Numbered from the stretch's first letter, positions 27,017-61,466 are shown. The stretch: DNA of 64,000 nt from Anaerolineae bacterium (GCA_034434235.1 DAOTZV010000129.1:24284-88283), one strand, 5' to 3'. Program-made: numbers and translations. The notes: generated by a model not told the origin, from the letters alone.

Positions 27017-27921
27017 CTTCCCGGCGGGAAGATGCTCAGCCGGTCGCCGGGCACCAGCGCGGCCTGCAACCCGCCCGCGTATTCCACGTTGCGGCCGTTG
27101 AGGCGGATGTTCCAATCGCGCCGCGGCCGATAGGCCGGCCGCACCCGCATCCAGGGGGTGCCCTCCTCGTCCGGCCGATATTCGTCCAGCCACACGGGAT
27201 CGAACACCTCGCGGCGCAGTTCGGGGAAGTAGTTGAAGAACTTGCGCAGGGCATGTTCGACGCGGCTGCCCGCCCCCAGCTTCACGCTCACCTCTTCGGC
27301 CTCGATCAGCGTGCGCAGCCGGCCGTAGACTTCGACCGGCAGGGCGAAGTCGCCCGCGTCCAGCTCGCGCGCGGCATGATAGCCGGCCGACATCAGGTGC
27401 CCGTGCATGGTGAGCAGCTTGTGCCAGCCGCTCAACGCGCGCGCCACCAGCGCCGCATCGCGCAGCTCGGCCGCGATGTAGCCGGCGAAGTTGGCCTGCG
27501 CCAGGCTGATCGCGCCGGACACGTAGACCTCGGGCACGTGGATGTGCCGCGGGCCGTGGCCGGCATGGTACTTGCCGGCGCGGTACAGGTAGCGGGCCAG
27601 GTCGTCGCTCAGGTCCAGGCCGATGGTGCGCGCCAGCCAGATGGTGAAGAAGCGCCGGCGTTCGGCCAGGTGCTCGGGGTCGGGGCCCTGCTCCCAGCCC
27701 AGGATCTCGGCCGTCTCCTTGAAGTTCAGCAGATAATCATACGCGCCGACGACGAATTCCGTGCCGTGGCGCATCAGGATCTCGACCGTCTCGGCCATGG
27801 CCGCCAGGTCCTGCCGGTTGAGATCCAGGAAGCTGCGCAGGCGCCGCCACTCTTCTTCCGGCGCCGGCGCCAGATCGGTCAACAACATGGCATCGGCATG
27901 TACACCCTCTCCGCCGTCCAT
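27013..27921 (-). CDS. Hypothetical protein (all-alpha N-terminal domain; the C-terminal tail ...GDRLSIFPPGR weakly resembles the end of ThiS/MoaD-like beta-grasp proteins)
   Basis: Codon usage supports a real gene; no confident family assignment. Confidence 0.45.
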   Translation of the reverse strand: MDGGEGVHADAMLLTDLAPAPEEEWRRLRSFLDLNRQDLAAMAETVEILMRHGTEFVVGAYDYLLNFKETAEILGWEQGPDPEHLAERRRFFTIWLARTIGLDLSDDLARYLYRAGKYHAGHGPRHIHVPEVYVSGAISLAQANFAGYIAAELRDAALVARALSGWHKLLTMHGHLMSAGYHAARELDAGDFALPVEVYGRLRTLIEAEEVSVKLGAGSRVEHALRKFFNYFPELRREVFDPVWLDEYRPDEEGTPWMRVRPAYRPRRDWNIRLNGRNVEYAGGLQAALVPGDRLSIFPPGR

Positions 27922-37800: not shown

Positions 37801-37948
37801 AGGGGCCGGCCAGGGCCTGGTCGGCCGTCAGTTGCTCTTTGGTGACGAAGCCGCTCAGCTCGACGGCGCCGAGCGGGCGGTAGAAGTGGTTCGTCAGCTC
37901 ATCGCGCCAGTTGGTGACGCGACGCAGCCACTCGGGATTGAGGGACAT
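34847..37948 (-). CDS. Alpha-mannosidase, glycoside hydrolase family 38
   Basis: 1033 aa; the N-terminal region and the GH38 catalytic block FAIGHSHIDVAWLWP are recognised. Confidence 0.85.
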   Translation of the reverse strand: MSLNPEWLRRVTNWRDELTNHFYRPLGAVELSGFVTKEQLTADQALAGPFAPMPVGTRWGAKWEYGWFKGEIVLPPSAAGQRIVLRANPGGESAVWINGRLAGAIDREHTEITLAMSGAPGARYELLIEAYAGHGLRTAGKGPVGYGRESVPEPPPTQTAVGETTFGIWNEEVYQLWLDVETLFQTRNLLDPDSLRVAEIDAGLKDFTLIADPELPPDEFLATVRRARARLKPLLECVNGSTAPTLFAIGHSHIDVAWLWPLQETERKMARTISTQLALMQEYPEFKFIQSQPHLYWMLRRRYPAKYEEVKAAVKAGKIIPEGGMWIEADTNISGGEALIRQFIHGKRFFKQEFGAENELLWLPDVFGYSGALPQIMAGCGIKYFATQKIFWTYNGGDPFPYNTFMWEGIDGTAVLAHIFNDYNSYTDPNALMQRWRQRVQKDGISTILLAFGHGDGGGGPTRNHLEFLRRTKDLEGLPRVKMASPIEFFKDLERRGLPRERYVGELYFQAHRGTYTSQARTKQNNRRAELALREAEMWGAAARALAGPGYAYPAADLEEAWRTVLLNQFHDILPGSSIHRVYEEAEASHAEAIAAARRAAGQAQAALVRPAEAVTVFNSLSWPRRALVRLPAGAQTAADRAGRPLPVQVEADAAWAEVTVPSCGWTTIWWPSVPPNFGGAGAAATSNALQATPRMLENECLRIEFNDLGEIVSLFDKEAQRELAAGPCNSFKMYKDVPGAWDAWDIDSMYTETPVELTEPATIVVEAAGPLEARLRVTRQLHHSTMTQVISLRRNSRRVDFATTVDWRESHKLLKVAFPVTVHANEAIHEIQFGHIRRPNHYSRPFDANRFEVCNHKWTALAEEARGCAVLNDSKYGVNVLGNSINLTLLKSALAPDMTADKGIQTFTYSFYAWNGPLAESDVVREAYELNVPATTAAGDGGERSLFSVDAPNIIIETVKPAEDGSADVVVRLYEAKHTATRAVLSTTLPVGRAALTDMLEAHVADLACDDGQIALDFRPFEIKTVRLTLSQ
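35905..35937. repeat. Palindromic G/C-run element (CCCCTGCCCCCCC-AAAGTT-GGGGGG) embedded in frame in the mannosidase gene
   Basis: Read directly; the translated insert is ...SVPPNFGGAGAAA...; same family as the three copies at 42596-42716. Confidence 0.6.
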
Positions 37949-45263: not shown

Positions 45264-45309
45264 CGTTTTATGTGCCAGGCAACCTCCAAGGTGCCTGGCA
45301 CATAAAACG
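45264..45309. repeat. Palindromic element family A (CGTTTTATGTGCCAGGCA-loop-TGCCTGGCACATAAAACG)
   Basis: 18-bp perfect stem; same core as 23455-23505. Confidence 0.6.
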
Positions 45310-46209: not shown

Positions 46210-48135
46210 TTATAATATCGGAAACTCCGTAATTCGCAAGTTGGTGCATCCGTACGGGATCAGCGTTAGTTCTTCCGGCGGCCCGGAGACAGCGATCGGG
46301 CCGGCCGGCACGTCGGCGGCCGAGCCGTTTTCCATGCCCCAGTCGGGCACCCGCAAGCCCCGCACCGTCGCCGAGACCGGCGCGCCGTCGGGCGAGAAGG
46401 GCCGGTCGCCGAGCGGGTGCTCGTGGAAGGTCACATCTTGCGCCAGCGTCGCGGCCGAGACGGCCAGCGCGTAGTTCCACGGCGTCGTCGGATAGACCTC
46501 CCAATCCGCGTGCGGCAGCTCGCGATGCGGCAGGTCCTGGTTCACCTGTCGCCATTCCTCGCCGATCTTCAGCGCGTAGACCAGCGGCCCGCGCGCGATC
46601 GCTGCCGCGCCGTTGTACCCGGGCAACAACGTCGGCCGCATCGGCAGGGTCAGGATGATCTCCGTCGTCCCGGTCCACTCGCGTTCCAGCCGATGGAACG
46701 TCCCGGCCGTCGGCGCGATGGGTTCTTCCCCCTCGATCTGCAACCGACTCTCCTCCGCCCATGCCGGGATGCGCAGGAGCAGCGGGAAGCGCACAGGGCG
46801 GTCAACCGTCACCGTGAAGCGCAGCGTCTCGCGGAACGGATAGCCGGTGTCGAGCGCCACGTTCACGGCCGCGCCGCCGATCTGGGCAGCGACCGTCGAG
46901 GGCGCGTAAGCCACAGCCGCCAGTCCGCCGTCGGCCGTGCGCATCCACAAATGCGCGGCGAACTTGGGCCATCCCTGGCTCAGGTTGGCGGTGCAACAGC
47001 CGTAGTTTGGCTCCAGCCCGAAGATGTTGGCTTCCGGGCCGTTGCTGTTCCACGGCCGGCCGGCGCGGATAGAGCATTCGACCTGGTTGACCTGCTGGTC
47101 GTACTGGTGCGCCCACATATCGGGCGAGAAGGTGGCCGGCAGCGCGTTGAACGTCACCTGCTCCAGCCGATCGCCGAAGGCCGGGTCGCCCAGGATGCTC
47201 AGGAGGACTTCGAGCGAGTACATGAACTCCACCACCGCGCACAGCTCGGTTCCCTGCGTGGGACGCTTGCCCGCCAGGCATTCGTCGCCGGTAAACATGC
47301 CCGTGACCATGCCGTGATGCCGGTCCAGCCTGGCGATCATGTCGTAGGCCGCGAGCCGGTCGGCCTCTTCGCCCGTCAGCCGCCACCAGAGCGCCGGCGC
47401 CTTGACCGCCATGGCGTTGTTGACGACATGGCCCATGTAGGTCCACTGTCGGGGCGGGGTCGGTTTCGTCAGCGGCCAGCGTCGGAAGAAGTCGCGCCAG
47501 TTGAATCCCTGCGCGTGGAGCTTGATCGCCAGCTCGGCCAACCACTGCTTTGCGTTGTCCCCATCGGCTTTCTGCTCGGGCTCGCTGCGCTCCCACACCC
47601 AGTAGATGCTGATCAACGCCTCGAACCAGCGAAACATGGCCCAGTTGAAGAGCGGCGCCCGGTCAATGTGGCGTTCGATGCGGCGCAGGCACTTTTCGAC
47701 GGCCGGCGCGACGCGGCCATCGCCGGTCGCATCGGCGTACTGCGTGAGCGCCTTCAGGATCAAGAAGAGCGCCCAGAGGTCGTAGTGCTGAAGCGGGGTC
47801 GGGCTTTGGCCGGCCGTCCACACCATCTGGCCCGGCCCCAGCCAGCCGTCCTCGGCCTGGTGCTCCAGGATATAGCCGACGTAACGATGGACCTTCGCCT
47901 TCAGTGTCTCGTCGTCCAGCAGGAAGGCCAGCGGGATCACGCCGTCCAGCCAGTAAGGCGCACGTTCCCAGCCCTCGCGGTCGCCGCCGAACCAGCGGCT
48001 CTCCTGGATGTCGGGCCAGAACTCGTCGAGGTGGCCGCTCAGGCCGTCGGCCTGGATGCGCAGCTGGCGGGCCAACCAGCCCTGCGGCCGGACGCTGCCG
48101 AGGGGCAACGCTCGGAATACCGGAGGGAAAAGCAT
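46210..48135 (-). CDS. Six-hairpin glycoside hydrolase-like protein (GH127 / DUF1680 beta-L-arabinofuranosidase-like)
   Basis: N-terminal LPLGSVRPQGWLARQLRIQADGLSGHLDEFWPDI...GWERAPYWLDG block recalled from GH127/DUF1680-annotated proteins; 641 aa. Confidence 0.5.
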   Translation of the reverse strand: MLFPPVFRALPLGSVRPQGWLARQLRIQADGLSGHLDEFWPDIQESRWFGGDREGWERAPYWLDGVIPLAFLLDDETLKAKVHRYVGYILEHQAEDGWLGPGQMVWTAGQSPTPLQHYDLWALFLILKALTQYADATGDGRVAPAVEKCLRRIERHIDRAPLFNWAMFRWFEALISIYWVWERSEPEQKADGDNAKQWLAELAIKLHAQGFNWRDFFRRWPLTKPTPPRQWTYMGHVVNNAMAVKAPALWWRLTGEEADRLAAYDMIARLDRHHGMVTGMFTGDECLAGKRPTQGTELCAVVEFMYSLEVLLSILGDPAFGDRLEQVTFNALPATFSPDMWAHQYDQQVNQVECSIRAGRPWNSNGPEANIFGLEPNYGCCTANLSQGWPKFAAHLWMRTADGGLAAVAYAPSTVAAQIGGAAVNVALDTGYPFRETLRFTVTVDRPVRFPLLLRIPAWAEESRLQIEGEEPIAPTAGTFHRLEREWTGTTEIILTLPMRPTLLPGYNGAAAIARGPLVYALKIGEEWRQVNQDLPHRELPHADWEVYPTTPWNYALAVSAATLAQDVTFHEHPLGDRPFSPDGAPVSATVRGLRVPDWGMENGSAADVPAGPIAVSGPPEELTLIPYGCTNLRITEFPIL

Positions 48136-48729: not shown

Positions 48730-49524
48730 TCACCCACCGAGCTGTTTGAGCACGCGCAGCGCGGCCGCCGCGTCCTCCCGAAAGTTCTCGGTGCGGGCCT
48801 CCACGCTCACCCGCGCCTGATAGCCGATGGCCTTGAGGTTGGCGAAGAACGACAGGAAGCCCGGTTCGACCGTCACGGGATAGGTGCGGGCCGGCGCGCT
48901 CGCGATGTGGATGTGCCGGATCGCATCCCGTGCTTCCAGCACGATGTCGGCCGATTCGCCCTCGAGCACCATGTGGTAGTAGTCAATCAGCAGTTGCACG
49001 GCCGGCCGGTCAACCTCACGCGCCAGCTTCAGTCCCTCGGCACCGGTGAGCACGATATTGGCCTCTTTCCGGTTCAGCGGCTCGATCACGATGGTGATCC
49101 CGTGCTCCTCGGCGATGGGCGCGGCGATGCGCATCGCCTGGACGATCTGCGCCCACGCCCGCTCATACGGAAAGCCCTCCGGCACGTTCTTGGCGCCGGC
49201 GCTGCCGAAGACGATCACCTGTGCGCCCAGCCGGGCCGCGCGGCCGATCGCGCGGCGATCGTAATCCTCTACCTGCGCCCAATCCACGTCCGGACCGGTC
49301 AGGCGCACGGTGCGCGGGTAGAAGACGCAACACGCCTCGCACGGGATGCCGGCCCGATCCAGGCGATCCACGACCGCCTGGAATTCCTCCTCCGGCAGAG
49401 CCGTCAGCGCGGCCAGGTAAAGCTCGACATAATCATAGCCGATCTCCGCGAGCTGCTCGATGTTCGGCGCGCGCGCGCCGTCCGGCGTGCGCGCCAGCGC
49501 GTCTACGCAACAACCGTATTTCAT
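48730..49524 (-). CDS. Sugar phosphate isomerase/epimerase (xylose-isomerase-like TIM barrel)
   Basis: Family-typical blocks DYVELYL, VIEPLNR and LIDYYHM; the start at MKYGCC overlaps the upstream stop (ATGA). Confidence 0.7.
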   Translation of the reverse strand: MKYGCCVDALARTPDGARAPNIEQLAEIGYDYVELYLAALTALPEEEFQAVVDRLDRAGIPCEACCVFYPRTVRLTGPDVDWAQVEDYDRRAIGRAARLGAQVIVFGSAGAKNVPEGFPYERAWAQIVQAMRIAAPIAEEHGITIVIEPLNRKEANIVLTGAEGLKLAREVDRPAVQLLIDYYHMVLEGESADIVLEARDAIRHIHIASAPARTYPVTVEPGFLSFFANLKAIGYQARVSVEARTENFREDAAAALRVLKQLGG

Positions 49525-50420
49525 GATCTTGTCCTCGCTTCCACTCCGGCCAGCTTCTCCAGCACGGTGATGACTGCCGTGTGATCCAGGTCGCCGCCGC
49601 CGGCCGCCAGGAGCGCCGCGAACAGCTCGTGCACCAGGCTCGTCACCGGCAGGGGCACGCCGTAATCGTTGCCCGTCTTCAGGATGATATTCAGGTCCTT
49701 GAAATGAAAGCGCGCCTTGAAGCCGGGCTGAAAGTCGCCCTGGATCACCTTTGGCCCGCGCACGTCGGCCACGCGCGACTGGGCGTAGCCGCCGCTCAGT
49801 ACCTTGTGGATGATCGCCGGATCTACGCCCGCCTTCGCGCCGAGCACCAACGCCTCGGCCATGCCGAGGATGTTCAGCGCCACCTGGATCTGGTTGCACG
49901 CCTTGACGATCTGACCCGCGCCGTTCGGCCCGCAGAGCGTGATCGTCTTGCCGAGCTTCTCGAAGATCGGTCGCATGGCCGCGAAGTCGTCCTCCGCGCC
50001 GCCGACCATGATCGAGAGGGTGGCGTTGATCGCGCCGACCTCGCCGCCGCTGACGGGCGCATCGAGACAGCGCACCCCCTTCGCCGCGAGTGCGTGCGCC
50101 ACCTTGACCGCGGCCGTCGGCGCGATGGTGCTCATATCGGCGTAAAGGACGCCGGGCCGCACGCCTTCGATCAGGCCGTCTGGGCCGAGCGCGACCGCCT
50201 CCACGTCGGGCGAGTCGGGCAACATGGTGATGATCACGTCGCTGCGCGCCGCGACTTCCCGCGGCGAAAAAGCCTCGGCCGCGCCCGCGGCAACCAGCGT
50301 CGCGACCGCCTGGCGGTTCAGGTCATGCACGACCAACGGATAGCCGGCCTTCAGCAGATGGCCGGCCATCGGCCGGCCCATGATCCCCAGTCCGATAAAG
50401 CCGATGGTAAGTGGTGTCAT
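49521..50420 (-). CDS. garR: NAD-dependent 2-hydroxy-3-oxopropionate (tartronate semialdehyde) reductase / 3-hydroxyisobutyrate dehydrogenase family
   Basis: IGFIGLGIMGRPMAGHLLKAG dinucleotide fold, catalytic Lys region (ADMSTIAP...KL), about 299 aa. Confidence 0.8.
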   Translation of the reverse strand: MTPLTIGFIGLGIMGRPMAGHLLKAGYPLVVHDLNRQAVATLVAAGAAEAFSPREVAARSDVIITMLPDSPDVEAVALGPDGLIEGVRPGVLYADMSTIAPTAAVKVAHALAAKGVRCLDAPVSGGEVGAINATLSIMVGGAEDDFAAMRPIFEKLGKTITLCGPNGAGQIVKACNQIQVALNILGMAEALVLGAKAGVDPAIIHKVLSGGYAQSRVADVRGPKVIQGDFQPGFKARFHFKDLNIILKTGNDYGVPLPVTSLVHELFAALLAAGGGDLDHTAVITVLEKLAGVEARTRS

Positions 50421-51274: not shown

Positions 51275-52309
51275 TCAGGGTCGGAACGCTTCCATCGGTC
51301 GCCAGCCGGCTTCGAGGAACTGCGTAAGGGTGCGCTGGGTGAGGCCGAAGGCGATGAACTCCTCCGGCCTCATGCCGTCCGGCTCGTAGGAGCGCACGAA
51401 CTCGGGCAGGCGACGCAAGCGCGCGATCACATCGGCGCCGATCGGCTCGTCTATTCCGCGGGCGCGGGGCACGCCATCCTGGAGCAACGTCGCCTGAACC
51501 GACGGGTGGATGGAGAGGATCAGGTCGGCGCCGACCAGGCCGAGCACGTGGTGGTTGCCGCGCAGCGCCGCGATCAGCAGCGTGGCCTCGTAACCGCGGG
51601 CCTTGTAAAGGTGATACGCGCGGCGGGCGGTCGCCAGGCCGGCGAGGCGCAGGTCGGCTTCCTCCACTCCGGCGCGCTGATCGAGCGCCATGTCGCGCAG
51701 GTAGTCGTCCAGCCGGCCGATCATCATGACCGCGAAGCAGCGGCCGGGCCGCACTCCGCCGGCGCGGGCGCGCGCCAGCCCGCGGCGGTAGCGCTCGGCG
51801 ACCGCGATGACCTGCGGCACGGTGAAGCTCACGGTCATGGTGACGGTGATCCCGTTGGCCGCGCATTCCTCCAGCACATCGAGTCCGGCCGCCGTGGCCG
51901 GCAGCTTGACCGCGATGTTGGGCGACCACTGCGCGAAGCGCTGCGCCATGGCGAACATGGCCTCGCGTTGGCCGGCCCATGCCGGGTTCACCTGCGCGCA
52001 GACATAGCCCTGGCGACCGGCCGTCTCCTCGTAGATCGGCAGCAGTTCGGCCGCCGCGTGGCCGACCACGACGCGCATCCACGCCTCGGCGCGGGCCTCC
52101 GGCGAGAGATCGGCCGGCAGGGGGCCGGCCGCCTGCGTCCACCGCTCGGCGCGGCTGCGCAGCGCCAGGCCGGCGAGCACGGGGTTGGTCGTCGCGCCGA
52201 CCGCGCCGTGCGCCAGGCCGCGCGCCAGCTCATCGGGATCGGCCGAGTCGTGCCACCAGGCGGTCGGCGTTTCCTGGGCCAACCATTGCAGATAGCTTGT
52301 TGGGCTCAA
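51275..52309 (-). CDS. tal: Transaldolase-family protein
   Basis: ATTNPVL motif near the N-terminus, Schiff-base Lys region (NIAVKLPAT), about 344 aa. Confidence 0.7.
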   Translation of the reverse strand: MSPTSYLQWLAQETPTAWWHDSADPDELARGLAHGAVGATTNPVLAGLALRSRAERWTQAAGPLPADLSPEARAEAWMRVVVGHAAAELLPIYEETAGRQGYVCAQVNPAWAGQREAMFAMAQRFAQWSPNIAVKLPATAAGLDVLEECAANGITVTMTVSFTVPQVIAVAERYRRGLARARAGGVRPGRCFAVMMIGRLDDYLRDMALDQRAGVEEADLRLAGLATARRAYHLYKARGYEATLLIAALRGNHHVLGLVGADLILSIHPSVQATLLQDGVPRARGIDEPIGADVIARLRRLPEFVRSYEPDGMRPEEFIAFGLTQRTLTQFLEAGWRPMEAFRP

Positions 52310-52316
52310 GGTGTCC

Positions 52317-53513
52317 TCACCCGCCGAACGTCTTGCGCATCTTGTCGCAGTAGTATTGCACGTTTTCCCATTTGGCGTCGGGCGCCAGGCGATGGTCGGG
52401 ACAGGGGATGTAGCCGCCCAGCTCGACCAGCGGCTTCAGGCGCTCGATCTCGGCGTCTATCGCCGCGTAGTCATAGGCGAACACCCGCTTGTCCATCCCG
52501 CCAACCCCTCGCAGCTCGGGGCCGTATTTCGCCCGCCAGGGCGCGATGCTGGCGCCCCAGGTGCCCACTTCGATGGGGAACATGGTGTTGACGCCGTTCT
52601 CGAACCAGGTAGGGATCAGCGCATCTATCTTGCCGTCGCAGTCGAGCGACACGATATGGATGCCGTGCCTGTTCAGCAGGTCGGTGATGCGCCGATAGTG
52701 CGGCCCCACCTTCTGCTTGAACACCTTCGGGCTGACGAGCGGGCCGCTCTTGAAAGCAATGTCCTCCCAGAAGTGGCCGAAGTCCCAGTTGTCGCCGTAG
52801 ACTTCCAGCGCTTTCTCGGTGGCCCAGTAACACAGATCGGCGAAGGTCACGATCATCTCATCGAAGAGCGCCGGGTCATCGGCCTGGAGGTAGGAGAGGT
52901 TGATCATGCCGACGATGTCGCGGATGCGGCCGTAGAGGCTGCCGCACATCAGGCCGAGGGGCCGCTCCCGGTCGGTGCGTTGCACCTCGTCTATGAGATC
53001 GCGGACATGGGTGCGGAAGCGGCGCCGGGGGTCATCATCCTCGCGGCCGACCTGCAGATCGCCGATCACCGGCTCGGGCCTGTAGATGCGCCGCTCGTCG
53101 GGTTGCAGCCGCGGCTTGAAGAGCTCCTCCCATTCCTTGCGGCCCTTGAACAGGTGGTCTATCTCGGTAGGGATGCCGGTCGCATCGTCCTTCTGGAGGA
53201 TGATCACGCCGTCGGCGTTGATCTCCTTGCGGGTGCCATCGGGCAAGACTTCGAGCACCTTCTGCTCGAACGGCGGCAGCAGATTGGTGTAGACGCCGAA
53301 GACGTGATACCAGTTGAAGTCGAAGCCGAGCTTTGCGCCGATGGACAGGTCGGCGGCGTTGCCGTCGGCCCAGGCGGCCGCCTCTTCCCTGGTGATGTGC
53401 CCTTCGCGGGCCCATTTGTCGAGCGTCTCGTTCCAGAAGCCGAAATGGACGACGGGCATGCGGTCGTAAGGCTGATAGTTGAGGATGGCCAGTGCACGTT
53501 CTCGATTGTTCAT
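52317..53513 (-). CDS. Uroporphyrinogen-decarboxylase (URO-D) family protein (MtaA/CmuA-like, non-heme role likely)
   Basis: C-terminal ...GGYIPCPDHRLAPD and the overall ~400-aa architecture of URO-D-like enzymes. Confidence 0.55.
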   Translation of the reverse strand: MNNRERALAILNYQPYDRMPVVHFGFWNETLDKWAREGHITREEAAAWADGNAADLSIGAKLGFDFNWYHVFGVYTNLLPPFEQKVLEVLPDGTRKEINADGVIILQKDDATGIPTEIDHLFKGRKEWEELFKPRLQPDERRIYRPEPVIGDLQVGREDDDPRRRFRTHVRDLIDEVQRTDRERPLGLMCGSLYGRIRDIVGMINLSYLQADDPALFDEMIVTFADLCYWATEKALEVYGDNWDFGHFWEDIAFKSGPLVSPKVFKQKVGPHYRRITDLLNRHGIHIVSLDCDGKIDALIPTWFENGVNTMFPIEVGTWGASIAPWRAKYGPELRGVGGMDKRVFAYDYAAIDAEIERLKPLVELGGYIPCPDHRLAPDAKWENVQYYCDKMRKTFGG

Positions 53514-53528
53514 GGGACTCCTCTCTGA

Positions 53529-56396
53529 TTATGCGCTGCTCCCGCGCAGAGTAAGCAGTCGCGGCAGGCGACGGATGAGCGCAACGGCGATGACCACCAG
53601 CTCCAGGCCGATCATGATGCCTGCAAACGTGATCGCCATTTGCGCGATCAGGTCGTCGGGCACGACCGGCAACAGGGGCGGCAAGGGCGCGTTCTTGACG
53701 CCGGCGATGCGGAAGAAGGGCGCGAACAGATAGGATGCAAAGGTGCCGATGAGCGCGCCGCCGGCCGCGCCGTAGGCCGTGATGGCGATGTATTCCAGCA
53801 GCACCTGGCCCAAGATCTGGCGGCGCTGCAGGCCGATGGCGTGGAGCACGGCAAAGCTGTGCAGGCGTTCGTTGAGGGATGCATAGGTGTTGATCAGCAG
53901 CCCGGCCAACGCCATGGCGGCCGCGGCCAGGAAGCCGACGGTCAGCGTGCCGAACACGCCGACCCGCTCGGTCTTGGCTTGCTCTTCGCGGATGGCGGCG
54001 TTGGCGTCGCGCAACCTGGCGGCTTCGACGCCCATGCCCCGCATGGCCTTCAACACATCCGATCCACTCGCGCCCGGCTTCAGGCGCAACCAGATCTGGT
54101 GTTCGACCGGCCCGCCCGTGAGCGAAAACAGGTAGTCCAGGTTGGTGATGCCGACCGGTTGATCCTCGTAGACCGTCGGAAAGTACTTATAGGTGCCGAC
54201 GATCGTAAAACGGACCTGGTAGGAACCGGCGCTGCCCAGGCTCACTTCGGCCTGGAGCGGATCGCCGATCCGCAACTGGCTGTTGGCCAGCACGGTTTCG
54301 GGGACCAGGATGCCATCGGGCCGCTGCGCGAGCAGGTTCATCAGTCCCCCGAGCGGTTCCTGGGCGAAATCGCGGCGAAACCAGGCCACAGCCGGAAAGA
54401 CCACCCGATCAATGCCGAGCAGCCGGCCGGCCGTGACCCGGCTGCCGCTGCTCAATCTGACGCGCATGGCATAGTTGCCGACGCGCGTGCCGTTGGCAAC
54501 GCCCGGCAGTTGCAGGAAATCTTCCAGGGGCAGGATCCAGGTCGCGTCGGTCGCCAGGCTGCCCTCGGCGCTGGCCGGCACCGGCACGAAGCTCAGGTCG
54601 GCGCCGGCTTCGTAATACATGCGATCCACCAGCCATTGATCGAGGCTGGCGGCCAGGGAGAAGGTATAGATCCCCAGGCCCAGCGAGATCATGATGAGCA
54701 AAAGCGGATTGACATAACTTTGGACCTGTCGGCCCAGTTGGCGGAGCGCCAGGTGCGGCGCGATCCACGGCAGCAGCGCGGCGATCCAATCCAGCGCGCG
54801 CATGATCAGCGGAAAGATGCGCATGACCAGGAGCGCGGCGGTCAGGATGAAGAGGGCCGGCACCAGCACGAGCAGCGGATCGCGAAAGAGGTCGGTGGGC
54901 CGGTCGGTGACGAGCATGGCCAGCGAGCCGTGGCGCTGGAGCTGGTCGTAGGCGTAGGCGGTGGGAAGGAGCAGGAGCAGGTCGAGATAATAGCGATACC
55001 AGAAGGGCGCGCGCACGGGGCGGGCGTGCTCGCGCTCGGCCTCGACCACGCTCTGTTGGCCGGCGCTCCAGGCCGGCACGAGGCGGGCGATCAACGACAC
55101 GAGCAGGGCCGCGATCACCAGCCGGAAGTCGAGTCCCTGCAACGAGATCGGCATCGGCGGCCGCGCGGTGAACTCCAGGAAGCTGACCGTCTGGCCCATC
55201 AGCAACGCGATGCCCGCCCCCATCGCCACGCCCAGCGGCACGGCGACGACGAAGATCAGCAGTTGCTCCACCAGGGTCAGGCCGAGCACCGAGAGCAAGC
55301 TGACCCCGCGGCTCACCAGGATCGCGGTTTCCCGGCGCTGCCAGCGGGCGACGATGGCCGAAGTGAGCACCAGGAAATAGAGCAGAAAGCCGAAGGCCGG
55401 CAGGTTGAAGCCGAGGAGGAGGATCGTCAGGGTCTGGTTGCGGTTGACGAAGTTCTCCAGCGGCTTGATCGGCGAGACGTCCAGCCGGGCGCCGGGCGCG
55501 AACTGCTCGATGACGTTCATGGCGCGCTGAAAGCCCTTCAGATAGGCCGACGAACGGGACGGATTCAGCGCGGTTTCGTCCAGGATGAGCTGCCAGGCGA
55601 CGAAGCGCGAGCCGCCGATCACCACCGGCTGGATGTGCGCCACGTAGTCTTCCTTGCGCACCAGGAAGGTATCGTTCAGTGCCAGCGACGGGTCGGTGAA
55701 CCAGAAGGGGTCTTTGGGGTTGATCGGCTTCCAAAAGCCGCGCACCCGAACGGGGATGATCTGCGACGCCATCGTGACGCCGAGGGAGTAGCGGTCGCCC
55801 ACGTTCATGCCGGCTTTGGCCGCCAGCTCGTGCGGCACCCACGCCTCCAGGATATCGCCGGCCGGCGGGGCATCCATCGGATCGCCGATGATCTCGATGT
55901 GGTCTTCCACTCCTTCGATATAGCCGACGTTGGCATTGCCCAGGTAGCGCGCCTCGCCGGTGCTGCCGCTGTCGCCGGGTTGCGCCTGGAGCATCAGGCC
56001 GCCGCTTTCGATCTCGAAGTGGGCGGCCTTCAGCGGTAGGCCGATCTCGGCCGCCAGCGTTCCTGCCACATGTGCGGTGAGCCGTTCGGCCGTCTGGAGG
56101 GTGACCGGCACGTCGGCGTTGGGCATCATGTAGACGCGCATCGAGAAGGGCGGCCGGCCGGTGGATCTGGTCAGTTCCGCCAGCTCTTGCAGGAGCACGA
56201 CGCGATCTACGGCCTGGGCGAAGAAGCCCGCGCTGGTGACCAGGCCGATCGCGAACGCGACGGCGAGCAGGGCCAGGAAGGACAGCTCGAGGCGATAGAA
56301 GAGGCGCTTGCGCGCCAGATGGATGAGTGCCCACACCATCAGCAGCGGTTGGGCGATCGTAACGAACTCGTGTTTTCGTTCAGGCATTGGAGTCAT
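53529..56396 (-). CDS. Large ABC transporter permease with two FtsX-like domains (MacB/LolE-type, 955 aa)
   Basis: Two sets of four TM helices with large extracytoplasmic loops; no cognate ATPase gene adjacent in the window. Confidence 0.75.
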   Translation of the reverse strand: MTPMPERKHEFVTIAQPLLMVWALIHLARKRLFYRLELSFLALLAVAFAIGLVTSAGFFAQAVDRVVLLQELAELTRSTGRPPFSMRVYMMPNADVPVTLQTAERLTAHVAGTLAAEIGLPLKAAHFEIESGGLMLQAQPGDSGSTGEARYLGNANVGYIEGVEDHIEIIGDPMDAPPAGDILEAWVPHELAAKAGMNVGDRYSLGVTMASQIIPVRVRGFWKPINPKDPFWFTDPSLALNDTFLVRKEDYVAHIQPVVIGGSRFVAWQLILDETALNPSRSSAYLKGFQRAMNVIEQFAPGARLDVSPIKPLENFVNRNQTLTILLLGFNLPAFGFLLYFLVLTSAIVARWQRRETAILVSRGVSLLSVLGLTLVEQLLIFVVAVPLGVAMGAGIALLMGQTVSFLEFTARPPMPISLQGLDFRLVIAALLVSLIARLVPAWSAGQQSVVEAEREHARPVRAPFWYRYYLDLLLLLPTAYAYDQLQRHGSLAMLVTDRPTDLFRDPLLVLVPALFILTAALLVMRIFPLIMRALDWIAALLPWIAPHLALRQLGRQVQSYVNPLLLIMISLGLGIYTFSLAASLDQWLVDRMYYEAGADLSFVPVPASAEGSLATDATWILPLEDFLQLPGVANGTRVGNYAMRVRLSSGSRVTAGRLLGIDRVVFPAVAWFRRDFAQEPLGGLMNLLAQRPDGILVPETVLANSQLRIGDPLQAEVSLGSAGSYQVRFTIVGTYKYFPTVYEDQPVGITNLDYLFSLTGGPVEHQIWLRLKPGASGSDVLKAMRGMGVEAARLRDANAAIREEQAKTERVGVFGTLTVGFLAAAAMALAGLLINTYASLNERLHSFAVLHAIGLQRRQILGQVLLEYIAITAYGAAGGALIGTFASYLFAPFFRIAGVKNAPLPPLLPVVPDDLIAQMAITFAGIMIGLELVVIAVALIRRLPRLLTLRGSSA

Positions 56397-56494: not shown

Positions 56495-56932
56495 TTATGC
56501 GTCATTCATCGGTCGGGCTGATCGGTTGCACAATCCCCGCGCTCGATACACCTCGGCCGCCTCGCGCACGAACGCGGCCGTCTCGTGCGCCTGGAACTCG
56601 TCGGCCAGGCGGGCCGCCAGCGCCAGCATCTCTTCGTATGTGGCACGGCCCGGCCGCAGCGTCTCGTACATGCGCAGCAGCTCGGCGTTGGGGACGGCGG
56701 TCAGCTCGGCCGCGCGGCGCAGGTTGGCCGCCAGCTGCGGAAAGCCGGCCCGCGCGGCGATGGCGGCCTGCGCGCGCAACGCCTCGGCCGTGATGCGCAG
56801 GTCATCGTCGGTCAGTTCGCCCGCGGCCAACCGCTCCAGCGTGATCTCGTCCAGCGGCCGGCCGCTCGCCGCCCGCAACTCTTCACCTGCGTTCTCCGTC
56901 AACGGATAAACACTCTCCATGCTGATCTCCAA
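56495..56932 (-). CDS. pduE: Coenzyme B12-dependent diol/glycerol dehydratase small (gamma) subunit (PduE/DhaB3-like)
   Basis: ...LRMYETLRPGRATYEEMLALAARLADEFQAHETAAFVREAAEVYRARGL aligns with the PduE C-terminus (IYNALRPFRS...AAFVRESAEVYQQR). Confidence 0.75.
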   Translation of the reverse strand: MEISMESVYPLTENAGEELRAASGRPLDEITLERLAAGELTDDDLRITAEALRAQAAIAARAGFPQLAANLRRAAELTAVPNAELLRMYETLRPGRATYEEMLALAARLADEFQAHETAAFVREAAEVYRARGLCNRSARPMNDA

Positions 56933-56968
56933 CCCCCAACCCCCAATCCCTAACCCCTATCCCCCGCC

Positions 56969-59287
56969 TCACTCCGGCTCCCAATCGAACCACAGCTCCT
57001 GCGGCGGCCTGTCGGCGACCTCGTCGGTCTCGCGGCGGTGCAGGAGCGCGGTCTTGACGATCAGGCGCAATCGCGCCCAGTTATCAATCTTCACCCCCAC
57101 CGGCGCCGGCGGGACGCCTTTGGCGTAGCGCGCCGCGTTTCGGCCGATCGCCCGGTACGTCTCCAGCGTCAGGCTCGGCGATTGCGGAAAGAGCTCCAGG
57201 TTGTTGAGCCGGGCCAACCCGCGCTTGTGGATGACGGCCGTGCCGCGCGATTGCAGGCCGATGGCGATGCCCGATCCGCTGAGCTCTGCGCCCGCGTAGC
57301 CGATGGCCGCCAGGTCGGAGCTGCGGTACACCTTCACCACGCGGGCGGTCAACCCTTCGTCGGCCACGCCCGCCAGGATGGCCGCCAACACCGCCTCGTG
57401 CTCCAGCCCCCCGATGGTGCGGGTGAGCGCCGCGTTGAACGCCGGGCCGACCGCGACGATCACTTCGGGTCGGGTGCCCGGCCGGGCCGGACCCAGCTCC
57501 ACCAGCTTCGGCGAGGCCGGGCCGACGTGCGGCGCGACGAATTGGCGCGGGGACTGCGCCTGGCGGATGGCCTGGAGCCGGGCCCAGCGTTCCCCTGCCA
57601 GCCGATAGCCGGTGCCCGGGCCGGTGTAGTCGTTCGGATCGTTGATCGCGCTGAGGACACGGAAGCGACCGGCCCCTCCGGCCGTCTCTGCTGCACGGGG
57701 AGAGGAAGTCCGGCTCTCCCCTCTCCTTGCAGGAGAGGGGGCGGGGGAGAGGTCGAAGATCGCGGCCGGCTGCAGATAGTCCCCCGCCACGCGCTGGCGG
57801 CCCATCTCCAGGATGTTGGCGGCCACATCTGCAAATCCGCGACGGCGCAGCGCGTCGGCCACGGCCAACATGCCCAGATCGCTCGCCAGGAAGCGGTCGG
57901 CCGCGGCCAGGTCGGCCACGGCGTCGCGGTCGGGCATGTCGTCGCTGCTGTGCGCCGTCGTGGCCGCGGCCACCTCGTCGTCGCTGATCGGCGGCAGGCC
58001 CAGCTCCGCGTAGACCGCCTGGATCGCCCGGCCGGCCCGCTCGCGCACCGCCAGGGCCGCCTTTTCGGTGATGGGGACAATCCCGCCGTCCACCTGCATG
58101 TCGCGCTGGAGCACGTTCCAGTCGTCGAAGTCCTCGGCGTCGAAGTTGCCGCCGCCGAACAGATTGTCGCGCTTGGGCACCGCGCTGTAGCCGGAGCAGA
58201 TGAAGTCGGTGCCGGGGATGAACTGGAGCATGAGCTTGGCCGATTTGCGCATGGTCGAGTGCGACGCGAGCGCGTCGTTGCCCGAGGCGCATTCCAGGCC
58301 GAGCATGGAGGCGAGCAGGTTCTCGGCGAGCACCGCGCGCACGCCGGCCGGCAGCGCTTCGGGCAAGGCGATGCATGAGATCGAGCCGTTCTGCACCCCC
58401 TGGCTGCCGGCGCCCTTCGTCACCAGCAGGCAACGCGCCTCCAGGTAGAGCATCGAGCAGCGTTCGGCGTGGCCCATCAGCGCCTCAGAGCCGGTGCCCG
58501 AGGTGAAGCGCACCTTGATTCCGCGCGATGCGTAGGCCGCGGCCAGGAACGCCTTCGACCAGGGGGTGTCGTCGCCGTCCACGAAGGCCCGTTCGGTGCC
58601 GTAGACCGAGAGGGTCTCGGCGTAGGTGGTCAACCCCTTCAGCGCGATCCGCAGGCCCAACGCCTCCTCGACCGCGCATTGGGTGAGGACGCCGCCGCGG
58701 CCCGTTTGCGTGCCGACGAGGACGGCCAGCGCGTTGAGCGGCGCGTTACGGGCCACGCGCACGGTCGTTTCGACCTCCGCGAAGCCGCGCAGGGCCGCCT
58801 CGGCCGCGTCGGCCGCGAGGAGCGCGGGATGCTCCTTCCAGTTGGTCACGTGCGCCTGGTTGGCGGGCGTCCGCCGGACGCGCATCTTGGCGAGGCCGAT
58901 CATCATCTCGAGCACGTTCATGTGGCGGATGATCTCGACCAGCTTGGCCGGGGTGCAACCGGCCGCCAGCCGGCGCACGGCCGCCTGCGGCACGTTGATG
59001 TCGGCCAACATGCGCGCGATCTGGAGGGACGGCGTCGCCATGGCCTCTTCGGCCACGGCCAGATCGAGCGCGTGGTCGGCGATGAAGATATCCAGGCTAT
59101 CGAACTCGGCCCGCGGCTTGCCGTCCATCTCGACCACGCGGCCGGCCTCCAGGCGCAGGGACGGCTGCGGGTCGTAGGGGCTATCGGCGACGATCAGCCC
59201 GGCCTCGGGCCATGGCTCGACGAACGTCTCTTTGTTGATGTCGCGTTCGGCCAGGATGGCGAAACGACGGGATGGGTTGGGTGTCAT
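56969..59287 (-). CDS. pduCD: Fused large (alpha) plus medium (beta) subunits of coenzyme B12-dependent diol/glycerol dehydratase (PduC-PduD fusion), with a ~30-aa low-complexity insertion
   Basis: Residues 1-~560 match PduC/DhaB1 closely, including QAHVTNWKEHP, DGDDTPWSKAFLA, GSQGVQNGSISC and FDDWNVLQRD. Residues ~580-772 match PduD (EVIVAVGPAFNA..., GLTARVVKVYRSSDLAAIGYAGAELSGSGIAIGLQSRGTAVIHKRGL...LELFPQSPSLTLETYRAIGRNAARYAKG). Confidence 0.85.
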   Translation of the reverse strand: MTPNPSRRFAILAERDINKETFVEPWPEAGLIVADSPYDPQPSLRLEAGRVVEMDGKPRAEFDSLDIFIADHALDLAVAEEAMATPSLQIARMLADINVPQAAVRRLAAGCTPAKLVEIIRHMNVLEMMIGLAKMRVRRTPANQAHVTNWKEHPALLAADAAEAALRGFAEVETTVRVARNAPLNALAVLVGTQTGRGGVLTQCAVEEALGLRIALKGLTTYAETLSVYGTERAFVDGDDTPWSKAFLAAAYASRGIKVRFTSGTGSEALMGHAERCSMLYLEARCLLVTKGAGSQGVQNGSISCIALPEALPAGVRAVLAENLLASMLGLECASGNDALASHSTMRKSAKLMLQFIPGTDFICSGYSAVPKRDNLFGGGNFDAEDFDDWNVLQRDMQVDGGIVPITEKAALAVRERAGRAIQAVYAELGLPPISDDEVAAATTAHSSDDMPDRDAVADLAAADRFLASDLGMLAVADALRRRGFADVAANILEMGRQRVAGDYLQPAAIFDLSPAPSPARRGESRTSSPRAAETAGGAGRFRVLSAINDPNDYTGPGTGYRLAGERWARLQAIRQAQSPRQFVAPHVGPASPKLVELGPARPGTRPEVIVAVGPAFNAALTRTIGGLEHEAVLAAILAGVADEGLTARVVKVYRSSDLAAIGYAGAELSGSGIAIGLQSRGTAVIHKRGLARLNNLELFPQSPSLTLETYRAIGRNAARYAKGVPPAPVGVKIDNWARLRLIVKTALLHRRETDEVADRPPQELWFDWEPE
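57670..57752. repeat. In-frame palindromic insertion inside the dehydratase gene (…CTCCCCTCTCC-TTGCA-GGAGAGGGGG…)
   Basis: Inverted repeat read directly; encodes DLSPAPSPARRGESRTSSPRAAETAGGAGR, which is absent from canonical PduC at this position. Confidence 0.55.
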
Positions 59288-59352
59288 GGGTAGTCGAGTA
59301 GTCGAGTAGTCAGATAGTCAAGTAGTCAGATAGTCGGGTAATCGGACAGTCA
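59288..59352. repeat. Tandem octamer array (GAGTAGTC-like x8; mRNA-sense GACTACTC) directly abutting the dehydratase start codon
   Basis: Read directly: GGTAGTC GAGTAGTC GAGTAGTC AGATAGTC AAGTAGTC AGATAGTC GGGTAATC GGACAGTC; no canonical SD between the array and the ATG. Confidence 0.7.
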
Positions 59353-59360
59353 GCGATGCT

Positions 59361-59396
59361 CCAAGCCGGTCTGTGACCGGCGGTCGGGGGTCACCC
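59361..59396. repeat. Family B hairpin element (inverted orientation: GCCGGTC-TGT-GACCGGC + GGTCGGGGG)
   Basis: Its reverse complement closely matches the 26-mer at 6317 and 28209; it lies downstream of the isomerase gene end. Confidence 0.5.
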
Positions 59397-59524
59397 TCTG
59401 AGCCTGAATGCGTGGTCTACTGAGTCTTGTGTGCTTTGGCGGCCCGGACTGCGTTGAGATAGGTCTCTTCGGTCTTGAGCACGTGTTCGAGCACCTGCAT
59501 CGTATCAAGCCTCGGGATTGCTTT

Positions 59525-60277
59525 CTACGCCTTCCCCATCCTGCGCAGGTTGTCCAGGCATCGCGCCACCACTTCCAGCGGCGGGTACTTGTAGCTTTCC
59601 TGCTCGACGATGTACCACTCGGTGCCGCCCTGCGTCTCGCACAGCTCGAAGACGCGTTGCCACGGCACATCCCCTTCGCCCAGGATCGCCAGCGGATCGG
59701 TCGCCGAGTACTCCTTGAGGTGCACGGTGATCGCCCGGCCGGGGTAGCGCGCCAGGTAGGGGATCGGGTCGCCGCCGCCGTGCAGCGCGTTGCCGATGTC
59801 CACCTGCATGATCACCTCTTTGCGGGTGTTGCTGAAGAAGGTATCCCACGGCAGCTCGCCTTCCAGCGGCTGGAATTCGATGGCGTGATTGTGATAGCCG
59901 ACGAGCATGCCGTAGGGCCGGAGCCGCTCGGCGATCTCGTTGAAGATGCCGGCCGTGCGCAGCCACGCGGCGCGCGAGCTGCGATATTCCTCGGCCAGCG
60001 CCGGCACCACCAGGTACTTGTTGCCGAGGATCTGGTTGAACTCGACGGTGCGGAGCAGCTCATCGCCCAAGAGGGTGTCGAGCCGGATGTGCGTGCCGCA
60101 GCACTTCAAGCCCAGGTCGTCGAGCATGGCGCGCAGTTCCCTGGCCGTGCGATCGTAGTAGCCGGCGAACTCAACGCCGACGTAGCCCATCTTCGCCACC
60201 GCGGCCAACGTGCCGGGCAGATCCGCCGCGCACTCGTGGCGAACGGAATAGAGTTGGAGTCCGATTGGGATGGTCAT
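59525..60277 (-). CDS. Sugar phosphate isomerase/epimerase (xylose-isomerase-like TIM barrel)
   Basis: Family-typical blocks IGLQLYSV, GYHNHAIEF and the metal-ligand pattern; SD GGAGG before the ATG. Confidence 0.7.
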   Translation of the reverse strand: MTIPIGLQLYSVRHECAADLPGTLAAVAKMGYVGVEFAGYYDRTARELRAMLDDLGLKCCGTHIRLDTLLGDELLRTVEFNQILGNKYLVVPALAEEYRSSRAAWLRTAGIFNEIAERLRPYGMLVGYHNHAIEFQPLEGELPWDTFFSNTRKEVIMQVDIGNALHGGGDPIPYLARYPGRAITVHLKEYSATDPLAILGEGDVPWQRVFELCETQGGTEWYIVEQESYKYPPLEVVARCLDNLRRMGKA

Positions 60278-60294: not shown

Positions 60295-60365
60295 TCAAAC
60301 GTCAAACGTAAAACGTCAAACGTAAAACGTCAAACGTGAAACGTGAGACGTTTTACGTTTTACTT
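60295..60365. repeat. Tandem heptamer array (C/A)AAACGT x8 followed by two inverted copies (ACGTTTT), occupying the whole intergenic leader of the isomerase gene
   Basis: Read directly: CAAACGT CAAACGT AAAACGT CAAACGT AAAACGT CAAACGT GAAACGT GAGACGT TTTACGT TTTAC; same unit as the array at 41107-41160. Confidence 0.7.
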
Positions 60366-61466
60366 TTCACGATACTCTATCCCCGCCGCCTCGATCTCCG
60401 CAGCCGTCACTTCGCGGCCGAGGTGGCTGGAGAGATAGATGCCCTCGGTGATCAGGGCGGTCTTGAGCGCCAGGCCGGCCGTGTCGAGCAGCGGCACGCG
60501 GCCGAGCTGCGCCCAAACCCAGTGGCGCTGCGAATGGTCGAAGCCGGCCTCGAGCGGGTTGCACTGATGCCAGCGCCAGTCGGCCTGTTTGATGTCGAAC
60601 GTGGCGTTCATCTCCATGTCCGACAGGGTGGTGAAGTAGCCGAACGGCTCGACCCGCAACCCGGCGTGCGAGCCGAACACGCGGTCGCCGTCCGAGCTGT
60701 CGGCGTGGATCGCCCATGCTTCTTCGATGAAGTAGGTGATCCCGCCGGCCAGGCGCACCAGGCCCATGCCGAGCTCCTCGACGTTGTAATTGCCCGAGGC
60801 CCGGCGGTCGGGGTACATGTTGTCGAGCATCTGATAGGTGCGGCCCGAGACGGTCTCGACGGCCGGATTGCCGAGCAACCACATCATGCGCGCGATGTGA
60901 TAGACCGCCATGTCCACCAGCGCGCCGCCGCCGGCCATCTCTTTCTGGACGAAGGCCGGCGTGCCGTAGCCGTCCACCCACGGCCGGCCGCGGCGGCGGT
61001 AATGCGACGACTTGGCGTAGTAGATCTGGCCGAGCTGGCCTTCGTCAATCATCCGTTTGGCCGCGCGCGCCTCCGGCGTGTAGAGCGTGTTGAGCTGGAT
61101 GTGGAGCATCCGGCCGGTGCGCCGGGCGGTGTCGTACATCGCCTTTGCCTCTGAGTATACCCAAGACATCGGCTTTTCGCAATAGACGTTCTTGCCCGCC
61201 TCCAGCGCGGCGATGGTCACCGCCGCGTGCAATCGGTTGTGCAACGCCACGTCTACCGACTGGATGTCGTCTCGTCGGAGCAGCTCCCGGTAGTCGCTGT
61301 AAACCGCCACCTCCGGGCCAATGGCCTGGGCCACCCGCCGCGCTTCGTCCTCGCGCAGGTCGCACACGGCCACGATCTCGGCTTCGGGGACCTCTTTGTA
61401 GCGCTCGACGTGGACCTTGCCGATCTGGCCCACGCCGATGATGCCGATGCGGACTTTGTCGGTCAT
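60360..61466 (-). CDS. Gfo/Idh/MocA-family NAD(P)-dependent oxidoreductase
   Basis: N-terminal Rossmann fold MTDKVRIGIIGVGQIGKVHVERY, EKP motif (YCEKPMS), 368 aa. Confidence 0.8.
   Translation of the reverse strand: MTDKVRIGIIGVGQIGKVHVERYKEVPEAEIVAVCDLREDEARRVAQAIGPEVAVYSDYRELLRRDDIQSVDVALHNRLHAAVTIAALEAGKNVYCEKPMSWVYSEAKAMYDTARRTGRMLHIQLNTLYTPEARAAKRMIDEGQLGQIYYAKSSHYRRRGRPWVDGYGTPAFVQKEMAGGGALVDMAVYHIARMMWLLGNPAVETVSGRTYQMLDNMYPDRRASGNYNVEELGMGLVRLAGGITYFIEEAWAIHADSSDGDRVFGSHAGLRVEPFGYFTTLSDMEMNATFDIKQADWRWHQCNPLEAGFDHSQRHWVWAQLGRVPLLDTAGLALKTALITEGIYLSSHLGREVTAAEIEAAGIEYREK

Follow-up and report, generated by a model that had tools for sequence, protein, structure and literature searches.

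How would a B12-dependent radical dehydratase fare when two of its three subunits are made as a single chain and no reactivase gene lies next to it? The question is raised by a gene pair at positions 56,495-59,287 of a 64,000-nucleotide stretch of DNA from an Anaerolineae bacterium (GCA_034434235.1 DAOTZV010000129.1:24284-88283), which is referred to below, at its full length, as the window. Diol/glycerol dehydratases dependent on coenzyme B12 (adenosylcobalamin, AdoCbl) are key to the production of 1,3-propanediol and 3-hydroxypropionate, are limited by suicide inactivation and need an ATP-consuming reactivase. The gene pair very likely encodes, on the evidence of its domains and residues, an enzyme of this type in which the large (alpha) and medium (beta) subunits are fused and the small (gamma) subunit is separate.

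56969..59287, minus strand: fused alpha-beta gene, 772 amino acids (aa), with an ATG start, a stop codon at 56969-56971, and the large-subunit domain (LU), a linker and the medium-subunit domain (MU) in one frame
56495..56920, minus strand: gene for the small (gamma) subunit, 141 aa when started at ATG 56920, placed by Pfam, NCBIfam and the gene calls of ENA and JGI

A first-pass annotation of this DNA had read the longer open reading frame (ORF) as large and medium subunits in one and its neighbour as a PduE-like small subunit, and profile searches for the three subunits bear this out, the Pfam models all scoring above cut-off. Dehydratase_LU (PF02286) matches the 772-aa ORF with 855.5 bits (cut-off 25) over aa 6-512 and a second stretch, while Dehydratase_MU (PF02288) matches it with 101.3 bits over aa 615-727, in the same frame and with no stop between the two (56969..59287). 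The NCBIfam large-subunit model NF011979 is passed as well (839.4 bits against a cut-off of 788), and the E-values are 1e-215 to the alpha subunit of Klebsiella pneumoniae glycerol dehydratase (GDHt) and 4e-204 to that of Klebsiella oxytoca diol dehydratase. Dehydratase_SU (PF02287) scores 146.6 bits on the gamma ORF, which at its full extent runs over 56495..56932 on the minus strand with an alternative TTG start at 56932; the likely start, ATG 56920, is taken from gene calls in ENA contigs.

Resemblance to the well-studied Klebsiella and Salmonella enzymes, that is, DhaB123 (PDB 1IWP, 1MMF) and PddABC/PduCDE (1DIO, 1EEX), extends to 57-60% identity for alpha and 49-51% for beta. With query residues numbered as the K. 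pneumoniae GDHt chain plus two, the Ca2+, substrate and catalytic residues Q144, H146, E173, E224, Q299, S304, D338, S365 and F377 are all kept and invariant in the family, Q144, H146, E173, E224, Q299, D338 and S365 being so in 20 relatives. Since Ca2+ and catalytic residues are all common to these enzymes and the window enzyme, radical chemistry with AdoCbl is presumably shared too. In K. oxytoca, we take the Ca2+ ligands and catalytic residues to be Q141, H143, E170, E221, Q296, D335 and S362. PduD Lys135 (IQSK-GT), presumably a contact to the cobalamin phosphate, is replaced by Arg681 (LQSR-GT), which is invariant in the relatives' alignment; by alignment, this is a conservative change that retains the positive charge. 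Base-on binding of AdoCbl between alpha and beta, which has no simple sequence motif, would be in keeping with this change and with the identity of beta to solved beta subunits. The mutant table of a review lists Q141, H143, E170, Q296, S301, Q336 and S362 (PMC7674605).

The fusion is genuine and has been selected for. Two ENA and two JGI metagenome samples (four independent assemblies) contain this product with the single substitution K409E, on contigs 99.5-99.8% identical to the window; no frameshift or stop separates the PduC-like and PduD-like parts, and a full-length fused ORF is found in 78/80 related loci. Because the fused product recurs in four assemblies and the fusion is uninterrupted in relatives, a frameshift or assembly artefact is excluded. 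GC content at third codon positions (GC3) is 0.91 in the fused ORF, which is usual for coding sequence here (window GC is ~67%), and conservation is strong over the whole length of the protein when aligned with its relatives.

These relatives are numerous. The best 120 matches among 5.8 billion proteins are all 743-790 aa long with both domains, their named sources being Litorilinea aerophila, Caldilineaceae, Anaerolineae, Kouleothrix and Thermoflexales. When one genome per species was scanned, relatives turned up at 440 loci, and the detailed counts of context and fusion given here come from the best 80. Almost all of these 80 are Chloroflexota (one is a metagenome-assembled genome labelled Bacteroidetes and one an unclassified 'uncultured bacterium'), and they span Anaerolineae, Caldilineales, Chloroflexia, Thermoflexales, Aggregatilineales, Phototrophicaceae, Oscillochloris and Roseilinea. 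Gaiellales/Thermoleophilia contain another large clade of fused forms, and further fused representatives come from Alphaproteobacteria and unnamed metagenome lineages, for hundreds of protein clusters in all. The first-pass suggestion to look for fused forms in Chloroflexota and Actinobacteria is thus answered positively, since they are abundant in Chloroflexota and Actinomycetota. As the representatives at 50% identity are mostly fragments, with ~6 at full length, the tree is crude and the number of fusion origins is not resolvable from it.

Natural fusions as such are not new. Fused DhaB1-DhaB2 enzymes are credited to Liu et al. 2010 and Martins-Pinheiro et al. 2016 (PMC4777399). Natural dhaB1-dhaB2 fusions have been published for Mesorhizobium, Mycobacterium and Hyphomicrobium (PMC4777399; PMC7674605; PMC6542942), and NCBI and JGI annotate the fused protein routinely, so the first-pass view of the arrangement as unusual has to be given up; the window finding is a confirmation and phylogenetic extension of a described architecture. 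In those genera, dhaF/dhaG are listed as absent from Mesorhizobium loti, M. opportunistum and Hyphomicrobium sp., the text saying likewise of Mycobacterium, the active site is slightly different, and reactivation has been proposed to be absent or to follow another route (PMC4777399). The window pair shares with these fusions the single alpha-beta polypeptide, the separate adjoining gamma and an altered active site, has no reactivase gene within the 64 kb inspected, as its relatives have none within 10 kb on each side, and differs in coming from the phylum Chloroflexota, class Anaerolineae-like. What is new is (i) the breadth of the fusion in Chloroflexota and Thermoleophilia, (ii) a clade-wide pocket of the Q336A type, (iii) gamma as sole conserved partner, (iv) a recurrent sugar-acid neighbourhood and (v) a hot spot for palindromic repeats.

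How are the two subunits joined? The parts of the fused protein were delimited as follows.

57536..59287, minus strand: large (alpha) part, ~aa 1-584, from Pfam, NCBIfam and alignment to GDHt chains, with PduC aligned to query residue 582
57506..57535, minus strand: natural alpha-beta junction, ~aa 585-594, VAPHVGPASP, from blastp against PduC, PduD and K. oxytoca GDHt beta
56972..57505, minus strand: medium (beta) part, ~aa 595-772, 49-51% identical to PduD and GDHt beta

The junction of ~10 residues stands in for the N-terminal ~45 residues of PduD, or ~14 of GDHt beta: the beta domain begins at about PduD residue 46 (GDHt beta residue ~15), its N-terminal tail is gone, and from there it matches solved beta subunits over its full length. 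Gamma is likewise short, of GDHt-like length and without the ~35 residues by which PduE is extended at its N-terminus. Such extensions of PduD and PduE target the enzyme of Pdu systems to the microcompartment, and their absence here fits the absence of shell genes. An AlphaFold2 model built from a 20-sequence alignment had a mean predicted local distance difference test score (pLDDT) of 47 and a predicted template modelling score (pTM) of 0.29 and was not used; the junction, as well as the insert described further below, was placed by alignment to solved structures.

Among PDB entries, the ORF as a whole is matched best (E = 4e-263) by engineered fused K. pneumoniae GDHt (9VIA, 9VI2, 9VIG, 9VII, 9VIJ), in which the alpha C-terminus is likewise joined to the beta N-terminus. 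Engineered fusions have linkers that are artificial or due to read-through, and their pocket is that of wild-type Klebsiella, whereas the window junction is natural, short and conserved, with the beta N-terminus deleted. Joining alpha to beta has been reported to slow inactivation, raise the optimum temperature by ~20 degrees C and increase thermostability (PMC7674605), and the engineered GDHt fusions of Wang 2009, Gibson 2013 and Maddock 2017, as they are cited in that review, are active, slower to inactivate and more thermostable.

The second distinctive feature is the substrate pocket. After the catalytic Asp, the window protein reads N337-D-A-L-A-S-H-S344 (NDALASHS), where Klebsiella and Haladaptatus have NDQTFSHS, that is, in K. 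oxytoca numbering, Q336A, T337L and F338A with S301 retained. Fused representatives from Chloroflexota and Gaiellales, together with P0122 and P0138, share NDA[LI][AS]SHS, and unfused Klebsiella and Haladaptatus keep NDQTFSHS. The alanine pocket is not found in a fused alphaproteobacterial representative, P0124, nor in a fused 829-aa representative, which keeps the Gln. P0124 (759 aa; a cluster member is labelled Alphaproteobacteria bacterium) carries S301D/Q336T/T337R where the window enzyme has Q336A/T337L/F338A, stands apart in the crude tree, and has a pocket unlike both canonical enzymes and the Chloroflexota clade; it may act on another substrate. The nearest actinobacterial clade, Gaiellales/Thermoleophilia, has the same alanine pocket with the reverse gene order, gamma then alpha-beta. 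In K. oxytoca, Q336A lowers k_inact with glycerol from 1.15 to 0.081 per min, i.e. 14-fold (PMC7674605), and the title of Yamanishi 2012 (S301A and Q336A variants; cited in PMC7674605) states that the redesigned enzyme is active on longer-chain 1,2-diols. The natural clade unites the fusion with a Q336A-type pocket, with no adjoining reactivase.

That last point, the absence of a reactivase, of microcompartment shell genes and of an adenosyltransferase, was part of the first-pass annotation for the immediate surroundings and holds across all 64 kb. An ORF-by-ORF scan of the whole window found no DDR reactivase (PF08841), bacterial microcompartment (BMC) shell, EutN or adenosyltransferase domain among the main ORFs. 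By tblastn, three reactivase alpha and three beta sequences (Klebsiella, Haladaptatus, Salmonella) had no match in the window or in 84 related loci, nor had PduO-type adenosyltransferase, PduA or PduJ in the window or the related loci (10-kb flanks). In the related loci, there is no conserved neighbour of ~600 aa, and, within 10 kb on each side, a reactivase lies next to the dehydratase in 0/80 Chloroflexota and 0/2 Thermoleophilia loci. A scan of the whole window at Rfam gathering thresholds gave 0 matches, hence no cobalamin riboswitch. In the Klebsiella, Salmonella and Haladaptatus loci, by comparison, the reactivase alpha gene comes immediately after the small-subunit gene. The Klebsiella and Salmonella enzymes differ from the window enzyme in all these respects: they are made of three polypeptides, with reactivase alpha after gamma and adenosyltransferase or BMC shell genes in the same stretch, and show PduD/PduE N-terminal extensions, NDQTFSHS and PduD Lys135, as opposed to no extensions, NDALASHS and Arg.

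What, then, is the enzyme for? The neighbours of the pair in the window had been named as xylose-isomerase-like enzymes, Gfo/Idh/MocA oxidoreductase, transaldolase and GarR-like reductase, correctly so by domain matches, and had been taken to suggest a role in sugar or polyol catabolism.

59525..60277, minus strand: AP_endonuc_2 protein, upstream of the fused gene
60360..61466, minus strand: Gfo/Idh/MocA oxidoreductase
51275..52309, minus strand: TAL_FSA aldolase
49521..50420, minus strand: GarR-type (tartronate-semialdehyde-reductase-type) reductase, which passes TIGR01505
48730..49524, minus strand: second AP_endonuc_2 protein

When ORFs were called in the 80 related loci, clustered and followed for gene order, the only conserved neighbour of the fused gene proved to be the small subunit, directly downstream in nearly all of them. 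Homologues of AP_endonuc_2 (2/80 loci), TAL (2/80) and GarR (1/80) are hardly ever near the dehydratase, and a pathway defined by these window neighbours was rejected as they recur in at most 2/80 loci; Gfo/Idh/MocA is found in 15/80. The sugar link is weak in the form first given to it, from the window neighbours, and is plausible by another path. The commonest other neighbour is an enolase-superfamily (MR_MLE) dehydratase, present within 10 kb in 36/80 loci (26 of the 44 with full flanks) and most closely matched by galactonate, mannonate and arabinonate dehydratases. Its arrangement differs between loci, the accompanying genes encoding a 7-bladed lactonase, PfkB kinases, aldolases of DHDPS-like or RraA-like type, SDRs and sugar ABC transporters. 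Gene contexts in relatives thus plausibly point to sugar and sugar-acid catabolism. In Thermoleophilia, gamma comes first, then alpha-beta, divergent from a cluster of SDR, FAH-hydrolase, aldehyde dehydrogenase and epimerase genes.

L089, 7601-10244: Thermoleophilia/Gaiella gene pair, with no reactivase found at the locus
L090, 7581-10250: Thermoleophilia/Gaiella gene pair, with no reactivase found at the locus

The SDR/FAH/aldehyde dehydrogenase/epimerase cluster of these two loci is reminiscent of non-phosphorylative pathways for deoxy-sugars or sugar acids. A partnership with an aldehyde dehydrogenase, of the kind found in pdu operons, was considered for the Chloroflexota genes and discarded, no homologue of the enzyme from the Thermoleophilia loci being found near them.

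Taken together, these observations favour, with a probability of about 65%, a cytosolic AdoCbl-dependent diol/glycerol dehydratase that acts on small vicinal diols, has little or no need of a reactivase and plays a role linked to sugar acids. The enzyme would be a naturally fused (alpha-beta)2-gamma2 assembly, with beta tethered directly to the alpha C-terminus after loss of its N-terminal tail and with a short gamma. By homology, Co-C homolysis would be followed by hydrogen abstraction at C1 of a vicinal diol, which the Ca2+ of the active site would hold in place, then by a 1,2-hydroxyl shift and loss of water to give an aldehyde, so that 1,2-propanediol would yield propionaldehyde, glycerol 3-hydroxypropanal and ethylene glycol acetaldehyde. 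The gene pair would be a self-contained two-gene module set in differing catabolic neighbourhoods, never beside a DdrAB/PduGH-type reactivase in the loci inspected. The tether and the Q336A/T337L/F338A pocket would slow inactivation to the point where little or no dedicated reactivase is needed, and a pocket that is wider and less polar at substrate C3 may also broaden the substrate range. As for its role, cleavage of 2-keto-3-deoxy acids by the aldolases of sugar-acid pathways would release glycolaldehyde, glyceraldehyde or lactaldehyde, which upon reduction would give ethylene glycol, glycerol and 1,2-propanediol, the classic substrates of the family, and these small diols are what the dehydratase would remove. 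From the fusion, the Q336A-type pocket and the fact that no reactivase is adjacent, unlike in canonical loci, we infer that the clade may be intrinsically resistant to inactivation, with little or no dedicated reactivase.

Several points weigh against this proposal. The medium and small parts stay below the NCBIfam cut-offs (227 against 248 bits over profile positions 40-214 of 219, and 149.5 against 183 bits over positions 42-168 of 174, respectively), although these scores fit the truncated N-termini. In K. oxytoca, a different enzyme background from the one discussed here, Q336A also lowers kcat 3-6 fold and raises the Km for propanediol from 0.06 to 0.57 mM (PMC7674605). Gene order around the dehydratase is variable between loci, no aldehyde or alcohol dehydrogenase is a conserved neighbour in the Chloroflexota loci, and some sugar-acid contexts hold a PfkB kinase, which points to phosphorylative routes with no free short aldehyde. 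Context counts overstate independence, the loci being phylogenetically related, and the searches for reactivase, shell and adenosyltransferase took in 64 kb here and 10 kb per side in relatives, not whole genomes. Finally, no biochemical study of any natural fused enzyme was found in the literature.

A stronger form of the proposal, which is tentative, with the odds somewhat against it, is that the Chloroflexota/Thermoleophilia clade is truly reactivase-independent, tether and pocket either avoiding suicide inactivation by the substrate or allowing damaged cobalamin to be replaced spontaneously by fresh AdoCbl. It would then be a cytosolic enzyme of bacteria that are for the most part aerobic or facultative, with no microcompartment.

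Opposed to this is the notion of an ordinary propanediol/glycerol dehydratase, with a reactivase (DdrAB/PduGH/GdrAB) and an adenosyltransferase encoded elsewhere in the genome and a fusion that is neutral or stabilising. All catalytic residues are conserved as such an enzyme would have them, the characterised B12 diol/glycerol dehydratases all use a reactivase (general background and PMC7674605), and a distant reactivase gene would lie beyond the 64 kb here and the 10 kb per side that were inspected. It is nevertheless unlikely, since the reactivase adjoins the dehydratase in the three canonical loci and in none of the 80 Chloroflexota or two Thermoleophilia loci, and dhaF/dhaG are listed as absent from the tabulated Mesorhizobium and Hyphomicrobium genomes with fused genes and stated to be so from Mycobacterium (PMC4777399). 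Moreover, a covalent tether may hinder the displacement of beta from alpha by a reactivase. Such a displacement of beta relative to alpha is reportedly the mechanism proposed for reactivases by Shibata et al. 2005.

We consider just as improbable a radical dehydratase for some other vicinal diol, e.g. a longer-chain 1,2-diol, 2,3-butanediol or a sugar-derived deoxy-polyol, for which the pocket would mean a new specificity and not resistance. Q336A, T337L and F338A are consecutive, unlike all characterised enzymes and invariant in the clade, the genes sit in sugar and sugar-acid clusters and not in pdu or dha operons, and the longer-chain 1,2-diols in the title of Yamanishi 2012 (cited in PMC7674605) would fit. 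Yet the residues that bind the two hydroxyls and Ca2+ are all unchanged, with S301 kept, enlargement by one residue leaves little space for a sugar-sized substrate, and no single conserved pathway partner indicates a substrate. A sequencing or assembly artefact, a lost stop codon or a decaying pseudogene has next to no chance of explaining the fusion in view of the four assemblies, the 78/80 loci, the hundreds of clusters, the GC3 of 0.91 and the full-length conservation.

The fused gene holds a further peculiarity, a low-complexity insert in its large-subunit part, noted in the first-pass annotation as ~30 aa encoded by a DNA palindrome and confirmed here as 28 aa with a perfect palindrome of 10-bp arms.

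57668..57751, minus strand: lineage-specific 28-aa low-complexity insert, aa 513-540, LSPAPSPARRGESRTSSPRAAETAGGAG
57718..57740: perfect palindrome within the insert, 10-bp arms and 3-nt loop, CCCCTCTCCT-TGC-AGGAGAGGGG

Residues 513-540 are unmatched in all solved structures. In most relatives, which measure 743-745 aa, the loop is 3 aa long (AAIF-DRN-FHV), and among proteins 76-91% identical to the window protein it carries from none to ~45 extra aa, of unrelated sequences. A stem of at least 10 bp arose in 8/5000 shuffles of the insert, and the number of palindrome matches expected from window shuffles is 0.00. At the same loop, the relative at locus L009 has ACGTGCCAGGCAC-TTCCGAA-GTGCCTGGCACGT, with 15-bp arms and in frame, and the one at L006 a third palindrome. 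The element of L009 is one of a family of repeats, built on the core GTGCCAGGC/GCCTGGCAC, that occurs intergenically in the window at 661-689, ~23466-23500, ~24417-24433 and 45264-45309, and only this GTGCCAGGC-core family was seen both between genes and inside the gene of a relative. The likeliest explanation is that small palindromic repeats have been captured in frame more than once by a permissive loop, which would lie on the protein surface, outside the mechanism; the insert is probably irrelevant to catalysis. Rickettsia palindromic elements are palindromic repeats inserted in frame in protein-coding genes. Here too, short palindromes lie in frame, the host protein is conserved throughout and different elements occupy one spot in different lineages, whereas sequences and hosts are unrelated; the likeness concerns the insert only and does not extend to mobility.

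As for the rest of the window, all genes from ~46.2 kb to its end lie on the same strand as the dehydratase. In the direction of transcription, two ABC exporter genes, Gfo/Idh/MocA, AP_endonuc_2 and a 237-bp gap precede alpha-beta and gamma; there follow a 107-bp gap, a 955-aa FtsX-like permease, a 398-aa protein, the TAL_FSA aldolase, a polysaccharide deacetylase, the tartronate-semialdehyde-reductase-type enzyme, the second AP_endonuc_2, two small ORFs and a GH127-like hydrolase.

59288..59524, minus strand: intergenic region of 237 bp upstream of the fused gene, presumed regulatory
53529-56396, minus strand: FtsX/MacB-like permease, 955 aa, with no adjoining partner ATPase and not a conserved neighbour elsewhere
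52317..53513, minus strand: 398-aa protein, whose only family match is a sub-threshold one to URO-D (E = 4e-4)
46210-48135, minus strand: GH127-like hydrolase, with a weak match to aceric acid hydrolase
34847-37948, minus strand: GH38 alpha-mannosidase

Around the gene pair, a promoter scan found 0 sigma-70-like sites and a terminator scan one terminator-like site, not above shuffle level. The 398-aa protein (52317..53513) was considered as corrinoid-related and dropped, the URO-D match being below cut-off, the NCBIfam search null and the gene not a conserved neighbour. Genes for glycan degradation and for sugar oxidoreductases abound in this region, in keeping with a life of polysaccharide scavenging. 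Further away, an aldehyde:ferredoxin oxidoreductase is encoded at 25099-26934 on the plus strand (AFOR_N and AFOR_C, E = 5e-129), with a MoaD-like gene called slightly over 1 kb downstream of it in the matching ENA contig; lying 30 kb from the dehydratase, it is a possible aldehyde sink, with no link claimed. A 302-aa protein at 27013-27921 (minus strand), with a protoglobin domain (E = 3e-15), may serve as a haem-based sensor. A large S8 subtilase of the secreted type (14243-17320, plus strand), which also has SdrD-B, CarboxypepD_reg and two malectin domains, is followed by a second SdrD-B/CarboxypepD_reg repeat protein (17349-19334, plus strand), the protease and carbohydrate-binding domains at 14243-19334 making an unusual combination.

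A large natural clade that is fused, has no reactivase adjacent and carries the substitution that engineers made, Q336A, would be an obvious source of sturdier enzymes and a test case for dispensing with cofactor repair. Were the clade truly reactivase-independent, it would contain the first B12 eliminase known to work with no dedicated chaperone, and a robust catalyst for the production of 3-hydroxypropanal, 1,3-propanediol or 2-butanone. For the organisms themselves, the proposal would, if true, mean that many Chloroflexota and Thermoleophilia use cytosolic B12 radical chemistry to get rid of small diols, a task that probably comes after sugar-acid catabolism and is done without a microcompartment.

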